Positions 1 to 7,274 of a DNA stretch of 24,000 nucleotides are shown piece after piece; positions within the stretch are counted from its first letter, which is position 1, and every line of letters starts with the position of its first letter. This DNA comes from an uncultured Actinomycetota bacterium. Lineage in GTDB: Bacteria; Actinomycetota; Actinomycetes; Propionibacteriales; Nocardioidaceae. Under the pieces are notes generated by a model. It was not told the origin of the DNA. It searched no databases and worked only from the letters and a program-made list of their open reading frames with translations. The stretch lies in NCBI GenBank assembly GCA_963721925.1, contig CAVRLH010000002.1:14336-38335 (forward strand). Reading direction: 5' to 3'. The translations under genes were made by a program, and so were the position numbers.

Positions 1-1004
1 GGGAGGACGACACGACGGCTGCGATCCCGGACTCGCGTTGGGAGCTGCTGTTCGACCGAGGGGACTTCGAGTTCATGACGGAGTCGTCGCGCGTGCTGAC
101 GGCGTACGACCGCTACTTCGCGACCGGCCCGTCGCAGACGTCGTCGAGCAGCCCGACCCACCAGTACCCGTGGTACATCGCCCTGGCGATCCTGTTCGTG
201 GAGCGCGGCGAGCAACCGGTGTTCTCCGAGGCCGCGCTGGCGTCCATCGCGTCCACCTGGCACGAGCCGCGACTCTATGGTGCCGCCCTCGCAGCACTCG
301 CCGGAGACCGGCGGGCTCACAGCAGGATCCTCGGACAGGTCCGGACCGAGCTCCCGTCGAGGCTCGACCTGAGCCGTCCCGACGACATCGTCGTCTGCCA
401 GGCGGCCGCGTCCCGCGGTGATCTCGACGACCTGCCGACGACGTACCAGACCTACTCCTACGACCACTTCCGGCTCTCACACGTCGCGGCCCTTGCCGAG
501 GCGGCCGGCGACCGCGGGGTCGTCGATCGCATCAGTCGTGCCACGGACGAGTTCGCGACCAGGAGGCCGGACACGCTGGAGATCAACCAGCTGCGGTCGA
601 CGCTCGCGCGCGCCGACCTCAGCCTCGGCCGGGCTGAGGATCTGCGGGCGGCTCCGACCACCCTGTCCTTCCTGTACGGCGCGATCAGGACGATCGTCAC
701 GCTGCTCGACCGGACCTCGCTCCTCGAGCTGGTCAGCGATCTCGAGCGGCGGTCCGTGTTCTGGCCGCAGGACGTGACCGCGTCCGCGCTCGACTCGACC
801 CTGCGCTCGACGATCACCCCCGCCGACTGCACCGCGCTGATCGAGACGGCCGACCGCTGCGGGTTGATCGTGGACCTGATCGACGCGGTCTCGGCGAGGA
901 CGACGACGCGGCTCTCGCTCCAGCTGGTCTCGGGGATCAGGCAGATCGAGGGGCTCCTGTTCCCCTTCGCCAGACCGCGTGCAGAGCTTCCGAGCATCCA
1001 CTGA
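1..1004 (+). CDS. Hypothetical helical (Leu/Ala/Arg-rich) protein, first visible gene of the protease-tyrosinase cluster; probably 5'-truncated by the window edge
   Basis: ORF track gives 75..1004 (309 aa). The same frame is stop-free from nt 3 to 74 (EDDTTAAIPDSRWELLFDRGDFEF, then M at 75) with GC-rich third positions, so the real start may lie upstream of the window. The stop at 1002-1004 is 24 nt before the ATG of the next gene. I recognise no catalytic or binding motif. Confidence 0.6.
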   Translation, partial: EDDTTAAIPDSRWELLFDRGDFEFMTESSRVLTAYDRYFATGPSQTSSSSPTHQYPWYIALAILFVERGEQPVFSEAALASIASTWHEPRLYGAALAALAGDRRAHSRILGQVRTELPSRLDLSRPDDIVVCQAAASRGDLDDLPTTYQTYSYDHFRLSHVAALAEAAGDRGVVDRISRATDEFATRRPDTLEINQLRSTLARADLSLGRAEDLRAAPTTLSFLYGAIRTIVTLLDRTSLLELVSDLERRSVFWPQDVTASALDSTLRSTITPADCTALIETADRCGLIVDLIDAVSARTTTRLSLQLVSGIRQIEGLLFPFARPRAELPSIH

Positions 1005-1028
1005 ACGGCATCAGACAGGAGGAGACCG

Positions 1029-2864
1029 ATGGACGCCTTGACCCGGCTCCGGGCCGCGAACGCCGCGATCCGAGATCGCGACCGGCCGTTGGCCGACGAG
1101 CTGACCGAGCTCACGGACGGACCCACGCCCGAGGGGCCGGGCGGCGAGATCCAGCTCGAGACGATCGTCCTGCGCACAGGTCGTCCCGTCCTGGCGATCA
1201 AGCAGGACGAGGCCCAGCTCGTCTTCGACGACGCCGACAGCGCCGTGTGGAACTCCCGGCTCCAGGAGGCACGGTCGTACCTCGTGCGTGCCACCAGAGC
1301 GGTCGGGAGGATCGAGGCCGAGGGCCACAGCCTGGCGTGGCTCGGCACTGGGTGGCTCGTGGCTCCCGACACGATCGTGACCAACCGGCACGTGGCTGCC
1401 GAGTTCGGCCGCCGCAGCGGCACCACCTTCGTCTTTCGGCAGTCCCCGGGTGGCGACCTCATGCGTGCCTCGATCGACCTCCTCGAAGAGGTGGACCGCG
1501 AGGACAGCCTGACCTTGGAGCTGGGGCAGATCCTCCACATCGAGGACGCGGACGGTCCGGACATCGCCTTCTTGCGCGTGGAGCAGATCGACGGTTCGTC
1601 ATCGGTGTCGCCGATCGCTCTCGCAGAGGCGCCGCAGCCGGACGACTTCGTGGCCGTGATCGGCTACCCCGCTCGCGACAGCCGGATTCCCGACGTCGAC
1701 CTGATGGATCGGATCTTCGGGAACGTCTACGACAAGAAGCGACTCGCTCCCGGTCAGGTGATCGAGCCGCGTAGCGGCACGCTCACCCACGACTGCTCCA
1801 CCCTCGGTGGGAACTCGGGATCGGTGGTGCTCTCCCTTGCCACCGGTGACGCAGTGGGGCTCCACTTCGCGGGGAGGTTCCTCGAGGCCAACTACGCTGT
1901 CTCGAGCCAGGTGGTCGCGCAGCGTCTGGACGCTGTGCAGAGCAGAAGGGCTTCCCGGCAGCAAGCTCTCGGCGTGCCGGACCCCTTCCGGGCGGGGAGC
2001 GGTGACGGCGAGGTCTTCGTCGAGGCGGTCGCGGAGGACTACCTGGACCGCGAGGGGTACGACGCGTCGTTCCTCGGCGAGGGCCCCGAGGCACCGCTGC
2101 CCGAGGTCACGCAGGGAGTCGACGATGTGATGACCTTCGAGCTCGACGGTCGCGACGAGCAGGTGTTGAAGTACGAGCACTTCTCGGTGCTCATGAGCGC
2201 CAGCCGACGGCTGTGCCGCTACAGCGCCGTCAACATCGACGGCAACCTGTCCAAGAGCTTTGCACGCGTGGGCTGGCGGAGCGATCCCCGGATCCCGCCG
2301 AGCGCCCAGATCCGGGACGAGCCCTACGGCAATCCGCCGCAGTTCTCGCGAGGACACATGACCCGTCGGGAGGACCCGATCTGGGGCTCCGACGAGGCGG
2401 CCGCTCACGGCAACGCCGACTCGATGCACGTCACCAACGCCGTACCGCAGATGCAACCCTTCAATGCCGGCATCTGGCTCGACCTCGAGGACTACGCGCT
2501 CCAGAACGCACGGCGGGACGACATGAGGATCTCGGTGTTCACCGGGCCCTTCCTCGATGACGACGATCCGACGATGTTCGGGGTGAAGATCCCCGTCGAG
2601 TTCTGGAAGGTCATCGCGTTCGTCCACGACGAGACCGGCGCGTTGTGCGCGACCGGCTACACGATGTCGCAGCGAGACTTCCTCAGCGAGGAGGAGTTCG
2701 TCTTCGGAGCACACCGGACCGCGCAGGTGACGATCGACTCGATCGAGGGGCGTGCGGGGCTCTCCTTCGGACCGCTCACCGAGCTCGATCCGTTCGTGCA
2801 GCTGGAGGGGTCCGCCCCGCAGCTGACCGACGTGACGCAGGTCCAGTTCCTTCGCAGGCGCTGA
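1029..2864 (+). CDS. Fusion protein: N-terminal trypsin-fold (Trypsin_2-like) serine protease plus C-terminal DNA/RNA non-specific endonuclease (NUC/Endonuclease_NS, beta-beta-alpha-Me fold)
   Basis: 611-aa ORF with SD AGGAGGAG at 1017-1024, 4 nt before ATG 1029. Protease triad in canonical order: His121 in GTGWLVAPDTIVTNRHVA (codon 1389-1391), Asp178 in DIAFLRV (1560-1562), Ser263 in GGNSGSVV (1815-1817). The nuclease half carries the Serratia-nuclease signature FSRGHMTRREDP (His443, codon 2355-2357) followed by NAVPQMQPFNAGIWLDLE (metal-binding Asn and Glu). No N-terminal signal peptide (MDALTRLRAANAAIRDRDRP). Confidence 0.9.
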   Translation: MDALTRLRAANAAIRDRDRPLADELTELTDGPTPEGPGGEIQLETIVLRTGRPVLAIKQDEAQLVFDDADSAVWNSRLQEARSYLVRATRAVGRIEAEGHSLAWLGTGWLVAPDTIVTNRHVAAEFGRRSGTTFVFRQSPGGDLMRASIDLLEEVDREDSLTLELGQILHIEDADGPDIAFLRVEQIDGSSSVSPIALAEAPQPDDFVAVIGYPARDSRIPDVDLMDRIFGNVYDKKRLAPGQVIEPRSGTLTHDCSTLGGNSGSVVLSLATGDAVGLHFAGRFLEANYAVSSQVVAQRLDAVQSRRASRQQALGVPDPFRAGSGDGEVFVEAVAEDYLDREGYDASFLGEGPEAPLPEVTQGVDDVMTFELDGRDEQVLKYEHFSVLMSASRRLCRYSAVNIDGNLSKSFARVGWRSDPRIPPSAQIRDEPYGNPPQFSRGHMTRREDPIWGSDEAAAHGNADSMHVTNAVPQMQPFNAGIWLDLEDYALQNARRDDMRISVFTGPFLDDDDPTMFGVKIPVEFWKVIAFVHDETGALCATGYTMSQRDFLSEEEFVFGAHRTAQVTIDSIEGRAGLSFGPLTELDPFVQLEGSAPQLTDVTQVQFLRRR

Positions 2865-2978: not shown

Positions 2979-4436
2979 ATGCTGTTGCAGCGGAAGGACA
3001 TCTGGCGGGCCGAGGAGGTCGGCGGGCCGTGGAACCAGGTGGTGCTGGCATATGCCCTGGCGTTCGGTGTGCTCGCGGGTCCACCCGATCCGCTCAAGCC
3101 CGAGTCGTGGACGCTGGAGTACCAGGCTGCGGTCCACGACATGCACCCGCTGCCCCCACCGGACGGCTTCCGTGCCACCTGCCAGCACGACACGTGGTAC
3201 TTCCTGCCATGGCACCGGATGTACCTGCTCCACTTCGAGGCGGTCGTCCGGGGCATCATCGCCGAGCTCGACGACGACCGGATCACGGACGAGACCCGCG
3301 AGACCTGGGCCTTGCCGTACTGGAACTACCAGCCCCCCGAGCATCGGATCCTGCCGAGTGCCTTCCGGCAGGCAGACCTGCCCGACGGCCAGGCCAACCC
3401 ACTGGCGGCGGCAGCGCGCTTCCCCGCGGTGCAGGCGGGGCTCCAACCCCTCAGCGATGACGAGGTCGAGTTCGCCGGATGGTGGGGGGAGACGGTGTTC
3501 ACGCTGCCCGGCACGCCGTCGTTCGGCGGGAGCGACACGCGTGGCAAGCGACACCGGCCCGTGCGGTTCGCCGACGCAGGTGCGCTGGAGATCACCCCGC
3601 ACGGGTCGGTCCACATGTACGTCGGCTGGGACATGCAGGCCTTCCACACTGCCGGCCTGGACCCCGTCTTCTGGCTGCACCACTGCAACCTGGACCGGCT
3701 GTGGGAGGTGTGGTGCGTCGGCGGCGGCGTACGACGACCCAATCCCGGCGCAGGCGGATGGGCGTCCGAGACGTTCGACTTTCGCGACGCGCACGGGGCC
3801 ACCTGGACGCGAACGTCGCGAGAGGTTGAAGACACGACCGCGCTGGGCTACACCTATGAGGACACGTCGGCGCCGGTCGCGCCGGCGTCCCCGACGAGGA
3901 GCCGCACCGTGGAGGTCGAGGGACCGGACGCAGAGACCTGGCGGCGGGAGCTCCCGCCTCGTGCCCTCGGGTCGACGGGCGAGCCGCTCGTCGTCCGGTC
4001 GGAGGCGGCGACGGTGGAGTTCGACCTGACGCCCGACGAGGAGGTGCGCACCCGCTCCGGTCGCCCGGGACCGGCCCGGGTCATCCTGAGGGTCGACAAC
4101 ATCGCGATCTCCGCCGACGACCTCGAACGAGTCCGGGACCGCCAGGCGGTCATCGGGACGTACGCCGTGTACCTGCTGGGCAGCCGGGACGGTGTCGAGG
4201 CCTACGTGGGCAACCTCCCACTGTTCGGCCTGCGAGAGTCGCTCGCGGAGGACGGCCACCACGAGCTGGCGTACTCCTTCGACGCCACCTCGGCGGTCAA
4301 CCTGCTGCGCAACCAGGACGCGTGGACGTGGGACCGCGCGAGCATCACGATCAAGCCGAGCAACCACGAGGCCTATGCGGGTGCCGGCGAGGTCGTGCCG
4401 GTCACGTTCGGCAACGTCGCCCTCTCCTACCAGTAG
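2979..4436 (+). CDS. Tyrosinase / polyphenol-oxidase family type-3 copper protein with ~190-aa C-terminal extension
   Basis: ORF track gives 2907..4436. Preferred start is ATG 2979, preceded by AGGAGG at 2968-2973. CuA site: AVHDMH...CQHDTWYFLPWHRMYLLHFE. PPO-type LPYWNY motif is present. CuB site: PHGSVHMYVGW...DPVFWLHHCNLDRLWEVW. After the copper domain (about nt 3850 onward) there is a further domain ending ...VILRVDNIAISADD...TYAVYLLG...ITIKPSNHEAY...VALSYQ, resembling the C-terminal domains of latent PPO/tyrosinases. No Sec or twin-arginine signal is visible. Confidence 0.9.
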   Translation: MLLQRKDIWRAEEVGGPWNQVVLAYALAFGVLAGPPDPLKPESWTLEYQAAVHDMHPLPPPDGFRATCQHDTWYFLPWHRMYLLHFEAVVRGIIAELDDDRITDETRETWALPYWNYQPPEHRILPSAFRQADLPDGQANPLAAAARFPAVQAGLQPLSDDEVEFAGWWGETVFTLPGTPSFGGSDTRGKRHRPVRFADAGALEITPHGSVHMYVGWDMQAFHTAGLDPVFWLHHCNLDRLWEVWCVGGGVRRPNPGAGGWASETFDFRDAHGATWTRTSREVEDTTALGYTYEDTSAPVAPASPTRSRTVEVEGPDAETWRRELPPRALGSTGEPLVVRSEAATVEFDLTPDEEVRTRSGRPGPARVILRVDNIAISADDLERVRDRQAVIGTYAVYLLGSRDGVEAYVGNLPLFGLRESLAEDGHHELAYSFDATSAVNLLRNQDAWTWDRASITIKPSNHEAYAGAGEVVPVTFGNVALSYQ

Positions 4437-4444
4437 CAGCCGCG

Positions 4445-5212
4445 ATGGCCGTGTCGTCAGCACTACCCGTCGGATCACCCCGCTGGGCGTGGCGCGCACG
4501 GGTGGAACGGCGACCGGAGCTGCCGGTCCTCGGCATCTCCGCGGCCGCCTGGGTGGTGCTGCTGCTCGTGCTGCGGGGCACGCCGACGTCGTCGTCGGGT
4601 CACGACCATGGCACGTCGCACCTCACCACCACCGGCCAGCCGGGGGACGAATGGCTGTCGGGGGCCGGCCGTGGCGCCCTGCTCTGGGTGGTGATGACGG
4701 TGGCCATGATGCTCCCGCTCGCCGTCCCCGGCCTGCGGTACGTCGCGCGGATGGTGCCACGCCGCGGTCGGCTGGCCGCCACGAGCACCTTCGCTTCCGC
4801 GTACGTCGTCGCCTGGCTGCCCGCGGCGGTGCTCGCCGGCGGCGTCCACCCGGGCACGCCGCCCGACTGGCCCGTCGTGGCAGCAGTCTTCCTGCTCGCG
4901 GCCGGCTGGGAGCTGACCCCCATCAAGCGAGCAGCCCTGCTGCGGGGCCACCGGCATCACGTCGTCCGCGCGCAGCAGCCCGCACGGAGACGCACCTGCT
5001 GGTCGTTCGGGCTCCGACGTGGTGGCTGGTGTCTCGTGTCCTGCGGGCCGGCGATGCTGGCACTGATGATCGGTCACCACGCACTCGTGCCTCTCCTCGT
5101 CCTCGCGGTCGGCGCGGTGGTGCAACAGCTCAGCCCCGACGCGCACTGGCGCCGCACCTGGTCGGCGGCCGGGCTCGTCCTGCTCGCCGTAGGTGCCCCA
5201 TGGCTGATCTGA
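4445..5212 (+). CDS. Multi-pass membrane protein, DUF2182-like (predicted metal-binding integral membrane protein)
   Basis: ORF track gives 4322..5212, which overlaps the tyrosinase. ATG 4445, 8 nt after the tyrosinase stop, is the more plausible start. There are 6-7 hydrophobic segments, a His-rich loop (SSGHDHGTSH), a WVVMTVAMMLP motif typical of DUF2182 as I remember it, and GHRHH plus CWSFG...WCLVSCGPAM Cys/His clusters. Family assignment is from memory, not a search. Confidence 0.7.
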   Translation: MAVSSALPVGSPRWAWRARVERRPELPVLGISAAAWVVLLLVLRGTPTSSSGHDHGTSHLTTTGQPGDEWLSGAGRGALLWVVMTVAMMLPLAVPGLRYVARMVPRRGRLAATSTFASAYVVAWLPAAVLAGGVHPGTPPDWPVVAAVFLLAAGWELTPIKRAALLRGHRHHVVRAQQPARRRTCWSFGLRRGGWCLVSCGPAMLALMIGHHALVPLLVLAVGAVVQQLSPDAHWRRTWSAAGLVLLAVGAPWLI

Positions 5213-5225
5213 CGAGGGAGGACGC

Positions 5226-7274
5226 ATGACACCGGACCAGGGCACGTTGTTCGTCAGCGACGCGTTCGTGAGCGTCGACAGCGGCGACGCCCTGGTCGAC
5301 GTGCGCCCGGTCCTCGACAGCCTCGAGCCGACGTACCTCGTCGTCACCGACCGCTCCTCCACCGACGGCGTCTTCGTCTTCGACGTCGAGGCAGTCCGCA
5401 GCCTCCTCGACGAGCTGGCGGACGAGGTCGCCGTCATCGGTTGGACCGGTGCCGATCTCGTCCGTGAGCTGCGCGTCGAGCCGTCGCTGGTCGTCAACCT
5501 GCTGACCGGCCAGACGGTGGACGCGACCGTCCCGGGCAACGAGCTGGAGGACGCGCTCCGGCGGCGCCTGGTCGTGACCGTCGACGATGCCGTCCGCGGC
5601 GTCATCTTCGCAGTGCACCTCGGAGAAGTGCCGTCGCTGCCCATCGACGAGCTGCTCATCCACGCCGCCAGACCGCAGCTCGACCGGGTCGAGGTGCAGG
5701 CCGTCAGCCGGGGCAGCCAGTTCCCCGTCGAGGAGCGGTCCGGGTCGCCACCTCCGCCCTTGCCGGAGGCAGCCGCGGACGGAGACAACGACGAGGCTGT
5801 TGTGAACGGCCTCCAGGTGCTCGTGCCCGCCGAGGTGGCGTACGACGCCGTCGTGCCGCTGCTCGTGCTCCTGACGCGGCCCGGCGGCGACGAGCCGGAC
5901 ATCCGCTTCGCCGCCGAGGTCGGTGACGTCATCTCCGTGGTGGTGTGGCCCCAGGAGGGAGTGGAGGTCGTCGGCTCCGAGACCGCGACGATCGAGGTGT
6001 CGGGGGCCGGCGACGACGAGACGGCGAGGATCGAGCTCAAGATCACGAGCCCGACCAGGGCGTCCCTGATCGTCGAGGGCTTCCGGGACCAGACGTCACT
6101 CGGCAGCGTGCTCGTCGAGCTGCGGGTGGTCCTGGGCGGAGGTCAGCCCGCCGCGACACAGCGCGCCGCAGTCCTTCCGCTCGATCGTGGCCGGGCCCCG
6201 CGGTCCGACCTCGCCGTCCACGTCGTCGAGGGCAAGAGCCCCACCGGTGACGGACGGGGTCTGCGCTTCGTCGCGATCGAGCCTGGCCACAAGCCCGTGG
6301 CCTTCCCGTTCCAGTCCGTCAATGGAGACGCCCAGGCCTATCTGGCCCCGCTCTTCGAGAGCATCAACGCCGCGCTGGACGCACCGGCTGCGGGTCTGCC
6401 GGGACCGACCGCGGCGGCCGACGAGGTCGTCCGGGGCATCGGTCTGACCCTGAGCTCGCAGCTGCTACCAGCGGGGTTCAGGGAGTTCCTGTGGGACAAC
6501 CGCGACAAGATCCGCAGCATCGTCGTCCACAGCGACGAGTCGCTCATCCCGTGGGAGCTGTGCCTGCTGACCCACACCGGCGACGACGGGCGTACCGAGG
6601 AGGTCGGCTTCTTCTGCGAGCTCTTCGAGCTCACCCGGTGGCGGCCTCGCCTGCCGGCCCTGGAAGTGATCACCATGCGCTCGATCGGCGTCATCGCCCC
6701 GGGCGACAGCGGGCTCACGTCCCGGGAAGCCGAGGTGGCGATGCTGACCGGCCTGACGACGCCCGATCGCACCGTCACGACCGTGCCCGCCACCACCGAC
6801 CAGGTGATGATGGCGTTGAAGGACGGGTCCTACGACGTGCTGCACTTCCTCGGGCACGGGGAGCTGCCCGACCCCACTCGCGCGTCGTCGGCGCGGCTGG
6901 TCCTGGCGGGTGCCTCCTACCTGACAGCGGAGTGGATCGGCGGTGCCTCGGCGAACTTCGGCCTGACCAACCCCCTCGTGTTCCTGAACGCCTGTCGGCT
7001 GGGCTCTGCGTCGGCCGGCCTCGTCGGTCCCTCGGGCTTCGCGCGCGTGATGCTCGACGCCGGCTCGGCTGTCTTCATCGGCGCGCACTGGAATGTCGTG
7101 GACGACACGGCCCACCGGTTCGCGACCGCGCTCTACCAGAACCTTTTGAACGGCGAACCCGTCGGTCGCGCTGCCCTGGCGGCGCGCCTGGCCGTCAAGG
7201 AGGTGGGTGATCCGACCTGGCTCGCCTACACGATCTTCGCCAGTCCCAGCGCGCGCGTCGCGTCCACTGCCTGA
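5226..7274 (+). CDS. CHAT-domain (caspase-like cysteine protease) protein with uncharacterised N-terminal ~420 aa
   Basis: 682-aa ORF with GGGAGGA at 5216-5222 before ATG 5226, 13 nt after the preceding stop. The C-terminal CHAT signature is intact: YDVLHFLGHGE (His544, codon 6855-6857) and PLVFLNACRLG (Cys590, codon 6993-6995), then AVFIGAHWNVVDD. The N-terminal part is acidic and beta-rich with no motif I can name. Confidence 0.9.
   Translation: MTPDQGTLFVSDAFVSVDSGDALVDVRPVLDSLEPTYLVVTDRSSTDGVFVFDVEAVRSLLDELADEVAVIGWTGADLVRELRVEPSLVVNLLTGQTVDATVPGNELEDALRRRLVVTVDDAVRGVIFAVHLGEVPSLPIDELLIHAARPQLDRVEVQAVSRGSQFPVEERSGSPPPPLPEAAADGDNDEAVVNGLQVLVPAEVAYDAVVPLLVLLTRPGGDEPDIRFAAEVGDVISVVVWPQEGVEVVGSETATIEVSGAGDDETARIELKITSPTRASLIVEGFRDQTSLGSVLVELRVVLGGGQPAATQRAAVLPLDRGRAPRSDLAVHVVEGKSPTGDGRGLRFVAIEPGHKPVAFPFQSVNGDAQAYLAPLFESINAALDAPAAGLPGPTAAADEVVRGIGLTLSSQLLPAGFREFLWDNRDKIRSIVVHSDESLIPWELCLLTHTGDDGRTEEVGFFCELFELTRWRPRLPALEVITMRSIGVIAPGDSGLTSREAEVAMLTGLTTPDRTVTTVPATTDQVMMALKDGSYDVLHFLGHGELPDPTRASSARLVLAGASYLTAEWIGGASANFGLTNPLVFLNACRLGSASAGLVGPSGFARVMLDAGSAVFIGAHWNVVDDTAHRFATALYQNLLNGEPVGRAALAARLAVKEVGDPTWLAYTIFASPSARVASTA

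Follow-up and report, generated by a model that had tools for sequence, protein, structure and literature searches.

A 24,000-nucleotide stretch of DNA (hereafter the window) from an uncultured bacterium of the actinomycetotal family Nocardioidaceae (GenBank assembly GCA_963721925.1) carries, at positions 1029 to 2864 of the forward strand, a gene whose product joins a trypsin-like protease with a non-specific nuclease. We call this gene and its product P0001. The window corresponds to C2:14336-38335, where C2 is contig CAVRLH010000002.1; contig coordinates are written in this form, and plain positions refer to the window. The architecture of P0001 and the genes around it suggest that the protein fills the effector slot of a conflict operon built from a STAND NTPase and multiple proteases, with a role in cell death or anti-phage defense. 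We regard this assignment, to an operon of the NucA-trypsin type that is CARD-NLR-like by architecture, as probable, although we make it with some reserve.

Both Halves of the Fusion Protein Retain Their Catalytic Residues

The gene is defined by an open reading frame of 611 amino acids with an ATG start, by Pfam matches, and by the alignment of its homologues. Four nucleotides 5′ of the start codon, the sequence reads AGGAGGAG (positions 1017 to 1024, forward strand), which resembles a Shine–Dalgarno element, and the guanine-plus-cytosine (GC) content at third codon positions (GC3) is 0.84 to 0.93 in this frame. Matches to two Pfam families lie far above the curated cut-offs: Trypsin_2 (PF13365) at residues 106 to 278 (E = 5.8e-17; 63.2 bits against a cut-off of 27.6) and Endonuclease_NS (PF01223) at residues 368 to 582 (E = 3.4e-41; 141.8 bits against 23). 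A first-pass annotation of this DNA had described a single polypeptide with an intact protease and an intact nuclease, and we can confirm from the sequence that P0001 is a single chain in which the serine protease and the non-specific nuclease both look active.

The protease domain (residues 46 to 300; positions 1164 to 1928, forward strand), as delimited by Pfam, alignment, profile, and Foldseek results, has a predicted chymotrypsin fold. Its triad of H121 (in NRHVA), D178 (in PDIAF), and S263 (in GNSGS) follows the canonical His-Asp-Ser order. The nuclease domain (residues 331 to 611; positions 2019 to 2861, forward strand), delimited by Pfam and alignments, is of the beta-beta-alpha-Me type found in NucA, EndoG, and Serratia nuclease, and its motifs include SRGHM with R441, G442, and H443, NAVPQ at residues 470 to 474, N479, and E487. 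Alignment to Serratia nuclease, with its RGH, LNQG, and RLED motifs, puts the RGH, N479, and E487 of P0001 at the positions of its catalytic His, its Mg-binding Asn, and the Glu in the next helix, respectively.

All conservation figures for P0001 are taken from an alignment of 113 full-length homologues. In this alignment H121, D178, S263, R441, G442, H443, N470, P473, Q474, N479, and E487 are 100% conserved, and the catalytic residue numbers given in the first-pass annotation proved exact. Judged in this way, both enzymatic halves of P0001 appear intact and under strong purifying selection. A family profile matches solved glutamyl endopeptidases (V8 and Esp), Spl proteases, and exfoliative toxins with its N-terminal half, and Serratia nuclease, Anabaena NucA, EndoG, and EXOG with its C-terminal half. 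Foldseek searches with the AlphaFold model of P0001 concur with these matches, giving template-modeling (TM) scores of 0.70 to 0.77 to the V8, Esp, and Spl structures. By fold and profile the protease domain is therefore best described as S1B-like, and a glutamyl endopeptidase specificity would be an analogy with these relatives.

The Fusion Gene Is Linked to a Core of Protease and STAND Genes

P0001 (g08) is the eighth of 11 same-strand genes at C2:724-21609, which were defined by codon-position GC content, start-codon contexts, and Pfam. The three genes directly before it encode a 931-amino-acid protein with S8 subtilase and trypsin domains (g05), a 601-amino-acid protein with a trypsin domain and a C-terminal domain without assignment (g06), and a STAND NTPase of 1018 amino acids (g07; C2:12283-15339, forward strand) with matches to AAA_16 (6.7e-09) and nSTAND1 (9.6e-05) at residues 180 to 403. 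Stop-start overlaps (ATGA or GTGA) connect g05, g06, and g07, the g07 start overlapping the g06 stop (GTGA), and g08 follows in the same direction after a gap of 24 nucleotides. The P0001 gene is translationally linked to this conserved g05-g06-g07 core. No convincing intrinsic terminator was found between operon genes, and the only matches in the P0001 gene fall within coding sequence.

The operon as a whole encodes three CHAT, four trypsin-like, and one S8 protease domain, and catalytic triads are kept in all four trypsin domains and in the S8 domain. The trypsin module of g05, including its N-terminal helix, is a paralogue of P0001 residues 6 to 297 (the BLAST alignment starts at residue 6), and hhalign pairs g05 residues 603 to 916 with P0001 residues 9 to 290 at a probability of 99.4.

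The identity of g07 bears on how the nuclease might be kept silent. The first-pass annotation had treated the reading frame at window positions 1 to 1004 as an unknown upstream protein that might inhibit the nuclease; it is instead the C-terminal third of g07, which starts 2 kb upstream of the window and whose product is a sensor or switch. That this protein is a dedicated inhibitor (an immunity protein) of the nuclease seems to us extremely improbable, even though its gene is adjacent, co-directional, and only 24 nucleotides away, and a STAND protein could in principle sequester an effector. NucA has a dedicated inhibitor, NuiA, but a P-loop STAND NTPase of 1018 amino acids is not NuiA-like. 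The genome contains no match to NuiA (PF07924), which is weak evidence given that none was found in any control genome either, and no small neighbor of the fusion gene is conserved across the 58 genome loci described below. What lies ahead of the fusion gene in most other genomes is a gene for a protease or genes without relation to it. Furthermore, LypC, a fusion protein of this kind from Caulobacter crescentus, did not bind the STAND protein LypB in two-hybrid assays (PMC13236601).

Relatives Reveal an Exchangeable Effector Slot

A protein search returned more than 100 full-length proteins that combine Trypsin_2 with Endonuclease_NS, with 46 to 76% identity to P0001. Most are from Actinomycetota, including Rhodococcus, Micromonospora, Nocardioides, Arthrobacter, Mycolicibacterium, and Agromyces. 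A genome scan for the fusion, reduced to one genome per species, yielded 58 loci, with full-length matches of 45 to 69% identity in Actinomycetota, Acidobacteriota, Bacteroidota, Planctomycetota, Verrucomicrobiota, a Rokubacteria metagenome-assembled genome (MAG), and a deltaproteobacterial MAG; the reading frame of a cyanobacterial MAG match is broken by stop codons. Homologues with about 48 to 50% identity are also found on alphaproteobacterial plasmids of Rhizobium, Agrobacterium (Ti plasmids), and Bradyrhizobium. The domain-architecture check that the first-pass annotation had proposed thus finds many such fusions, spread over several phyla. No full-length P0001 orthologue was found in the 24 same-genus genomes searched, and therefore the cluster behaves as an accessory, horizontally acquired island.

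The four-gene core, encoding the S8+trypsin protein (~931 amino acids), a trypsin protein with an additional domain (~600), the STAND protein (~1020), and the trypsin-nuclease fusion, is present on three independent metagenome contigs (L071, L072, and a JGI contig), which are the nearest contexts that were readable, two of them with DNA and one without. The core proteins of these contigs share 67 to 86% identity in all four cases and diverge in step. STAND orthologues of 1013 to 1025 amino acids are encoded directly upstream of the fusion gene on these three contigs and in Micromonospora, where the STAND and fusion genes form a pair on a short contig and the core is partly present. Elsewhere the arrangement varies: an S8 gene precedes the fusion gene in Mycolicibacterium goodii, and S8+trypsin or two trypsin genes do so at other loci. 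In Nocardioides, genes for EAD1+trypsin and for a STAND-like protein come after the fusion gene, genes for tyrosinase and PpoB2 lie nearby, and in Mesorhizobium the core lies beside PpoB2 and CHAT genes. Among 51 same-strand neighbors at other loci, Pfam recognized caspase (5), Trypsin_2 (5), AAA_16 (3), the NACHT-like NPHP3_N (2), EAD1 (2), and CHAT, TIR, S8, and PLD (1 each), with many unrelated genes besides; these statistics are approximate, as neighbor genes at high-GC loci were called with a filter based on codon-position GC.

An informative variant is that of the alphaproteobacterium Methylorubrum thiocyanatum (L078:5098-14011). There, a core of S8+trypsin, a 615-amino-acid protease, and a STAND protein ends with a gene for a nuclease of 322 amino acids without a fused protease. 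Therefore, the last position is an effector slot, its occupant can be exchanged, and the nuclease is the payload. Because copies on conjugative plasmids (the Rhizobium and Agrobacterium homologues, 48 to 50% identity) stand beside differing conflict genes, the data also suggest that conflict systems of several kinds use the fusion as a portable effector.

The plasmid neighborhoods themselves are of some interest. The homologue on Rhizobium phaseoli pRphaN671d adjoins MoxR/VMAP-type and patatin genes, and that on Agrobacterium tumefaciens pTiCFBP5877 adjoins S8, CHAT, and TIR genes. Separately, the genome that carries P0001 has a second Endonuclease_NS gene on another contig (C15:252496-253389, reverse strand). 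Its product of 297 amino acids consists of a nuclease domain only, has a DRGH motif and no signal peptide, and is reminiscent of the unfused nuclease at the end of the Methylorubrum operon.

N-Terminus, Tether, and Linker

No hydrophobic N-terminal segment was found in P0001 or in 120 homologues (maximum 12-residue hydropathy within the first 60 amino acids, ≤1.76), and none of these proteins has a lipobox. Pfam likewise reveals no LXG, WXG, Rhs, or other toxin-delivery domain. The lack of a signal peptide reported in the first-pass annotation is thereby upheld at the level of hydropathy, and the features of P0001 appear to be those of a cytoplasmic protein. It would be hard to credit that P0001 leaves the cell by non-classical export to act as a digestive enzyme or as a toxin between bacteria, although its closest solved relatives (Serratia nuclease, V8 protease, and exfoliative toxins) are secreted and Jablonska et al. 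(2017), who found Endonuclease_NS domains often coupled with Trypsin_2, read these couplings as virulence-related (PMC5714182). In addition to the missing export signals, the gene lies within an operon for cytoplasmic STAND, CHAT, and trypsin proteins, and the same N-terminus of the fusion occurs in both Gram-positive and Gram-negative phyla.

The chain begins with a predicted helical hairpin (residues 3 to 29; positions 1035 to 1115, forward strand), modeled by AlphaFold as helices at residues 3 to 17 and 19 to 29, which is common to the trypsin module of the S8+trypsin paralogue g05. A disordered tether follows (residues 30 to 45; positions 1116 to 1163, forward strand), in which the predicted local distance difference test score (pLDDT) is below 50 throughout, and where the homologue alignment places about 12 extra residues of other family members as an insertion at position 37. 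The S1B proteases V8, Esp, and Spl are zymogens that are activated by precise N-terminal processing, and pro-peptide structures of V8, Esp, and Spl top the Foldseek list for the P0001 model. The hairpin may be a pro-segment or an adaptor, and by analogy with these zymogens we infer that the hairpin and tether together are a candidate control point.

The two domains are joined by a variable, disordered linker (residues 301 to 330; positions 1929 to 2018, forward strand), as judged from its conservation (0.26), a pLDDT below 50 at residues 308 to 330, and the linker alignment. Low conservation is confined to this segment; the residues that follow it (331 to 367) are conserved and form part of the nuclease module. 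The linker is consequently shorter than the ~100 amino acids first assigned to it: nucleotides 1930 to 2140 encode 70 amino acids, of which the variable disordered part comprises about 25 to 35. The composition ascribed to it, rich in Ala, Gly, and Asp, is discernible, but the enrichment is mild (A+G+D of 0.37 vs. 0.27 for the whole protein). Relative to nearly all close homologues, P0001 has undergone an in-frame linker deletion of ~55 amino acids, and most homologues are 650 to 690 amino acids long because they have the longer linker.

Accessory Genes of the Cluster

Upstream of the core, g01 (580 amino acids) and g02 (776 amino acids) are tandem CHAT genes (C2:724-4831) whose products are 66% identical over 458 residues. 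The contig starts ~700 nucleotides before them, inside the cluster, and the island may continue on another contig. The next two genes (C2:5134-7655) encode a trypsin-like protease of 480 amino acids (g03) and an MvdD-like ATP-grasp ligase of 360 amino acids (g04), and overlap by GTGA. This protease and ATP-grasp pair recurs beside the four-gene core on metagenome contigs L072 and L071, where an astacin and ATP-grasp pair is present as well. Because microviridin-type ligases make cross-linked protease inhibitors, the pair might regulate the cascade.

Downstream of P0001, g09 (485 amino acids; positions 2979 to 4436) encodes a tyrosinase with a DUF7868 domain (Pfam Tyrosinase, 1.4e-29; DUF7868, 3.6e-10). 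It is followed by g10 (255 amino acids; positions 4445 to 5212), a PpoB2-like membrane protein whose profile matches a Nocardioides open reading frame annotated as PF09948 PpoB2, and by g11 (682 amino acids; positions 5226 to 7274), a CHAT (caspase-like) protease (Pfam CHAT, 1.5e-18); all three are on the forward strand. With g11 the same-strand cluster ends, and ordinary N-acetylglucosamine-utilization genes lie 3′ of it. Genes for tyrosinase+DUF7868, PpoB2, and CHAT proteins accompany modules of S8-trypsin, LypA-like, and STAND genes in this genome, in a metagenome actinobacterium (L071), in Nocardioides, and in Mesorhizobium. This company recalls the protease-activated prophenoloxidase cascade.

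Proposed Mechanism

We propose that the STAND protein would sense an invader-derived or stress cue and oligomerize, and that the oligomer would activate associated trypsin-like or S8 proteases by proximity. The cascade would end on the trypsin-nuclease fusion, which is presumed to be latent in its full-length form until it is processed either at its N-terminal pro-segment or tether, in the manner of S1B zymogens, or in the disordered linker. The non-specific nuclease would then degrade cellular and invader nucleic acids, resulting in abortive infection or programmed death. Proteolytic release of the nuclease is plausible as a hypothesis. The first-pass annotation had argued that the nuclease must be restrained, and proteolytic activation is indeed a prediction in the literature (PMC7159879); however, its two specific proposals, autoinhibition by the protease domain and an upstream inhibitor, found no support.

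Several observations weigh against the proposed cascade. No cleavage site was identified in P0001. The linker is the least conserved part of the fusion protein, some homologues from Acidobacteriota and Bacteroidota have almost none of it, and its one semi-conserved element, VPLxVTVExGxP, falls in the segment that P0001 is missing. AlphaFold2 predicts both P0001 domains confidently (mean pLDDT of 80.7) but with a disordered linker and a predicted TM score (pTM) of 0.51, and for a homologue with a full-length linker the pTM is 0.54 and the pLDDT of the 72-amino-acid linker is 27 to 38. Neither model has a confident packing of protease against nuclease. Given the low pTM and disordered linker in both, there is no computational support for the protease domain or linker occluding the nuclease site, as the first-pass annotation had suggested, and such predictions can neither establish nor exclude an occluded state. 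The alignment with Serratia nuclease contains no large active-site insertion in P0001, the largest being 7 amino acids. Moreover, many fusion genes elsewhere have no recognizable partner within 10 kb, and an anti-phage role for the P0001 clade is a prediction.

The physical connection between the STAND protein and the proteases is also elusive at the sequence level. None of the operon proteins has an EAD, Death-like, or CARD domain that is recognizable by sequence, and EAD1 was not found over the whole genome. All-against-all BLAST, hhalign of orthologue alignments, Pfam searches with N- and C-terminal fragments (E ≤ 1), and PDB sequence and profile searches found no adaptor domain common to the STAND protein and the protease proteins. 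The ~110 residues ahead of the g06 trypsin domain have no match to solved CARD-like domains (PDB sequence and profile) or to Pfam. Published CARD-like domains lack sequence similarity to one another and are known to escape sequence methods.

Finally, LypC is the one protein with this architecture that has been studied experimentally. Its S296A mutation abolishes lysis, whereas H471A/N505A nuclease mutants keep the lysis phenotype, and LypC bound neither LypA nor LypB in two-hybrid assays (PMC13236601). The mutant phenotypes leave room for a different explanation, wherein the functional output comes from the protease half, the role of the nuclease half is mainly structural or secondary, and P0001 is one more cascade protease that would cut targets such as other effectors, the lid of the neighboring latent tyrosinase, or host proteins. 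The nuclease domain is missing in a species related to Caulobacter, and its deletion destabilized LypC (PMC13236601); the tyrosinase+DUF7868 and CHAT proteins of the operon are further potential substrates. However, complete invariance of the nuclease catalytic and metal-binding residues in 113 homologues from many phyla would not be expected of a scaffold, and Methylorubrum keeps only the nuclease in that operon position. These invariant residues and the nuclease-only effector argue that the nuclease probably matters in most lineages, and we consider a protease-only output unlikely, although it deserves serious attention.

Another possibility is that activation occurs by induced proximity or dimerization without cleavage, in which case the STAND oligomer would gather the fusion proteins and the nuclease would be active as a dimer, like Serratia nuclease and EndoG. 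Two-hybrid assays detected a weak self-interaction of the LypC endonuclease domain (PMC13236601), Avs/STAND systems as a rule activate their effectors through oligomerization (PMC12799240), and many homologues can do without the linker. Proximity alone would nonetheless leave the invariant triad of the fused protease unexplained, and hhalign found no interaction domain common to P0001 and the STAND protein. We judge this explanation to be decidedly unlikely.

A more elaborate version of the proteolytic cascade treats the fused protease as a built-in lock, such that the fusion is a self-contained pro-nuclease. An upstream CARD-NLR-like cascade would cut the hairpin and tether and thereby convert the S1B-type protease from its zymogen form, after which this protease would release or switch on the nuclease to which it is fused, and the same cascade would unlock a latent tyrosinase by removing its lid. 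This is a long shot, but if the lock and the tyrosinase reading are both true, the operon would parallel, in bacteria, the serine-protease/prophenoloxidase cascade of arthropods and couple it to nucleic-acid destruction.

Deployment of the nuclease by a STAND-led protease cascade is the explanation that we prefer. Experimental study of NLR-like multi-protease death and immunity systems has only just begun, and this compact operon is suited to two questions: how a cytoplasmic nuclease is silenced, and why both active sites are invariant even though the nuclease is dispensable in Caulobacter.

Comparison with Known Systems

Among the closest published matches is System 3, the NucA-trypsin system that was predicted by Kaur, Burroughs, Iyer, and Aravind (eLife 2020) and for which a proteolytic cascade was proposed to deploy the nuclease (PMC7159879). 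It comprises NucA and trypsin domains, fused or in multiple copies, sometimes with S8, EAD1, and STAND NTPase components, and was counted in 45 organisms, mostly alphaproteobacteria (PMC7159879). The P0001 operon resembles it in having the fusion, three further trypsin-like domains, one S8 domain, and a STAND NTPase. In contrast, the P0001 clade is actinobacterial, with the full-length fusion also present in Acidobacteriota, Bacteroidota, Planctomycetota, and other phyla, and the STAND protein has no fused trypsin domain, unlike that of the NucA-trypsin system. The EAD1 or bDLD2 (Death-like) adaptor, which the published definition places as an option on a trypsin paralogue or the STAND protein, was not found in the P0001 operon.

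A second point of reference is the Lysobacter gasdermin operon, which works via a STAND ATPase and a CARD-bearing trypsin-like protease, as reported by Wein et al. (PMC10312443). Related three-gene operons encode a CARD-protease, an ATPase, and an effector that is often fused to a trypsin-like protease (PMC10312443). In these operons an NLR-like ATPase and trypsin-like proteases act on a terminal effector, as is proposed for the P0001 operon. The effectors of the tested CARD operons are gasdermin or a phospholipase-endonuclease, whereas the P0001 operon has the trypsin-nuclease fusion in this role and a CARD that is not demonstrable by sequence.

A further close resemblance is to LypABC of C. 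crescentus, a CARD-NLR-like system that controls lysis for gene-transfer-agent release (Nat Microbiol 2026; PMC13236601). LypA (~592 amino acids) consists of a CARD (1 to 80), which binds the LypB N-terminal domain, a trypsin domain (85 to 305), and a degenerate ATPase (324 to 592); LypB is an NLR-like STAND protein of 1027 amino acids; and LypC (662 amino acids) has a trypsin domain (1 to 335), a flexible linker, and a NucA-type endonuclease (354 to 662) (PMC13236601). The products of g06, g07, and g08 (601, 1018, and 611 amino acids) match LypA, LypB, and LypC in domain types, order, and sizes, a likeness of architecture and not of sequence. No Caulobacter entry was among the matches listed for a protein search seeded with an alphaproteobacterial LypA-like protein. 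Members of the g06 family have a trypsin domain between an N-terminal and a C-terminal domain, the latter assigned by Pfam to AAA_22 or AAA_16 in 3 of 34 members, and the degenerate Walker A and Walker-B-like LVIDD of the family consensus agree with the degenerate ATPase of LypA. The order of protease, STAND protein, and trypsin-nuclease fusion, which is the CARD-NLR-like arrangement, is conserved on the L071, L072, and JGI contigs. Compared to LypABC, the P0001 operon has an S8+trypsin gene added to its core, as well as CHAT, tyrosinase/PpoB2, and ATP-grasp accessory genes.

Gated nucleases of another fold provide a mechanistic parallel. Tuck et al. (Science 2025) showed by experiment that trypsin-like proteases, as parts of fusions with Hachiman or Avs sensors, unlock pro-nucleases of the metallo-beta-lactamase (MBL) fold, and that caspases do so in the case of "canu" loci (PMC12799240). 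What these pairs would share with P0001 is the idea of a latent nuclease and a partner protease acting downstream of an oligomerizing sensor, including STAND proteins such as Avs1. However, the MBL pro-nucleases are separately encoded and use two disordered active-site insertions as gates, whereas P0001 is a beta-beta-alpha-Me nuclease that is fused to its own protease and has no such insertions. They may thus serve by analogy as a mechanistic precedent for P0001, and are not its homologues. Serratia nuclease, NucA, EndoG, V8, Esp, and Spl have the folds and catalytic motifs of the two P0001 halves but, unlike P0001, these nucleases and S1B proteases are secreted or mitochondrial single-domain enzymes.

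The fusion itself is therefore not new, and the kind of system to which it belongs is known, widespread, and recently characterized. What is new is the actinobacterial four-gene core of S8+trypsin, LypA-like, STAND, and trypsin-nuclease genes, the breadth of phyla beyond the 45 published and mostly alphaproteobacterial cases, the linker deletion in P0001, and the recurrent tyrosinase/PpoB2/CHAT company and protease and ATP-grasp pairs. P0001 is an ordinary member of a large family, and its gene is the last of the core genes in an operon of the NLR-like (STAND ATPase and protease) cell-death or immunity type that is already represented in the literature.

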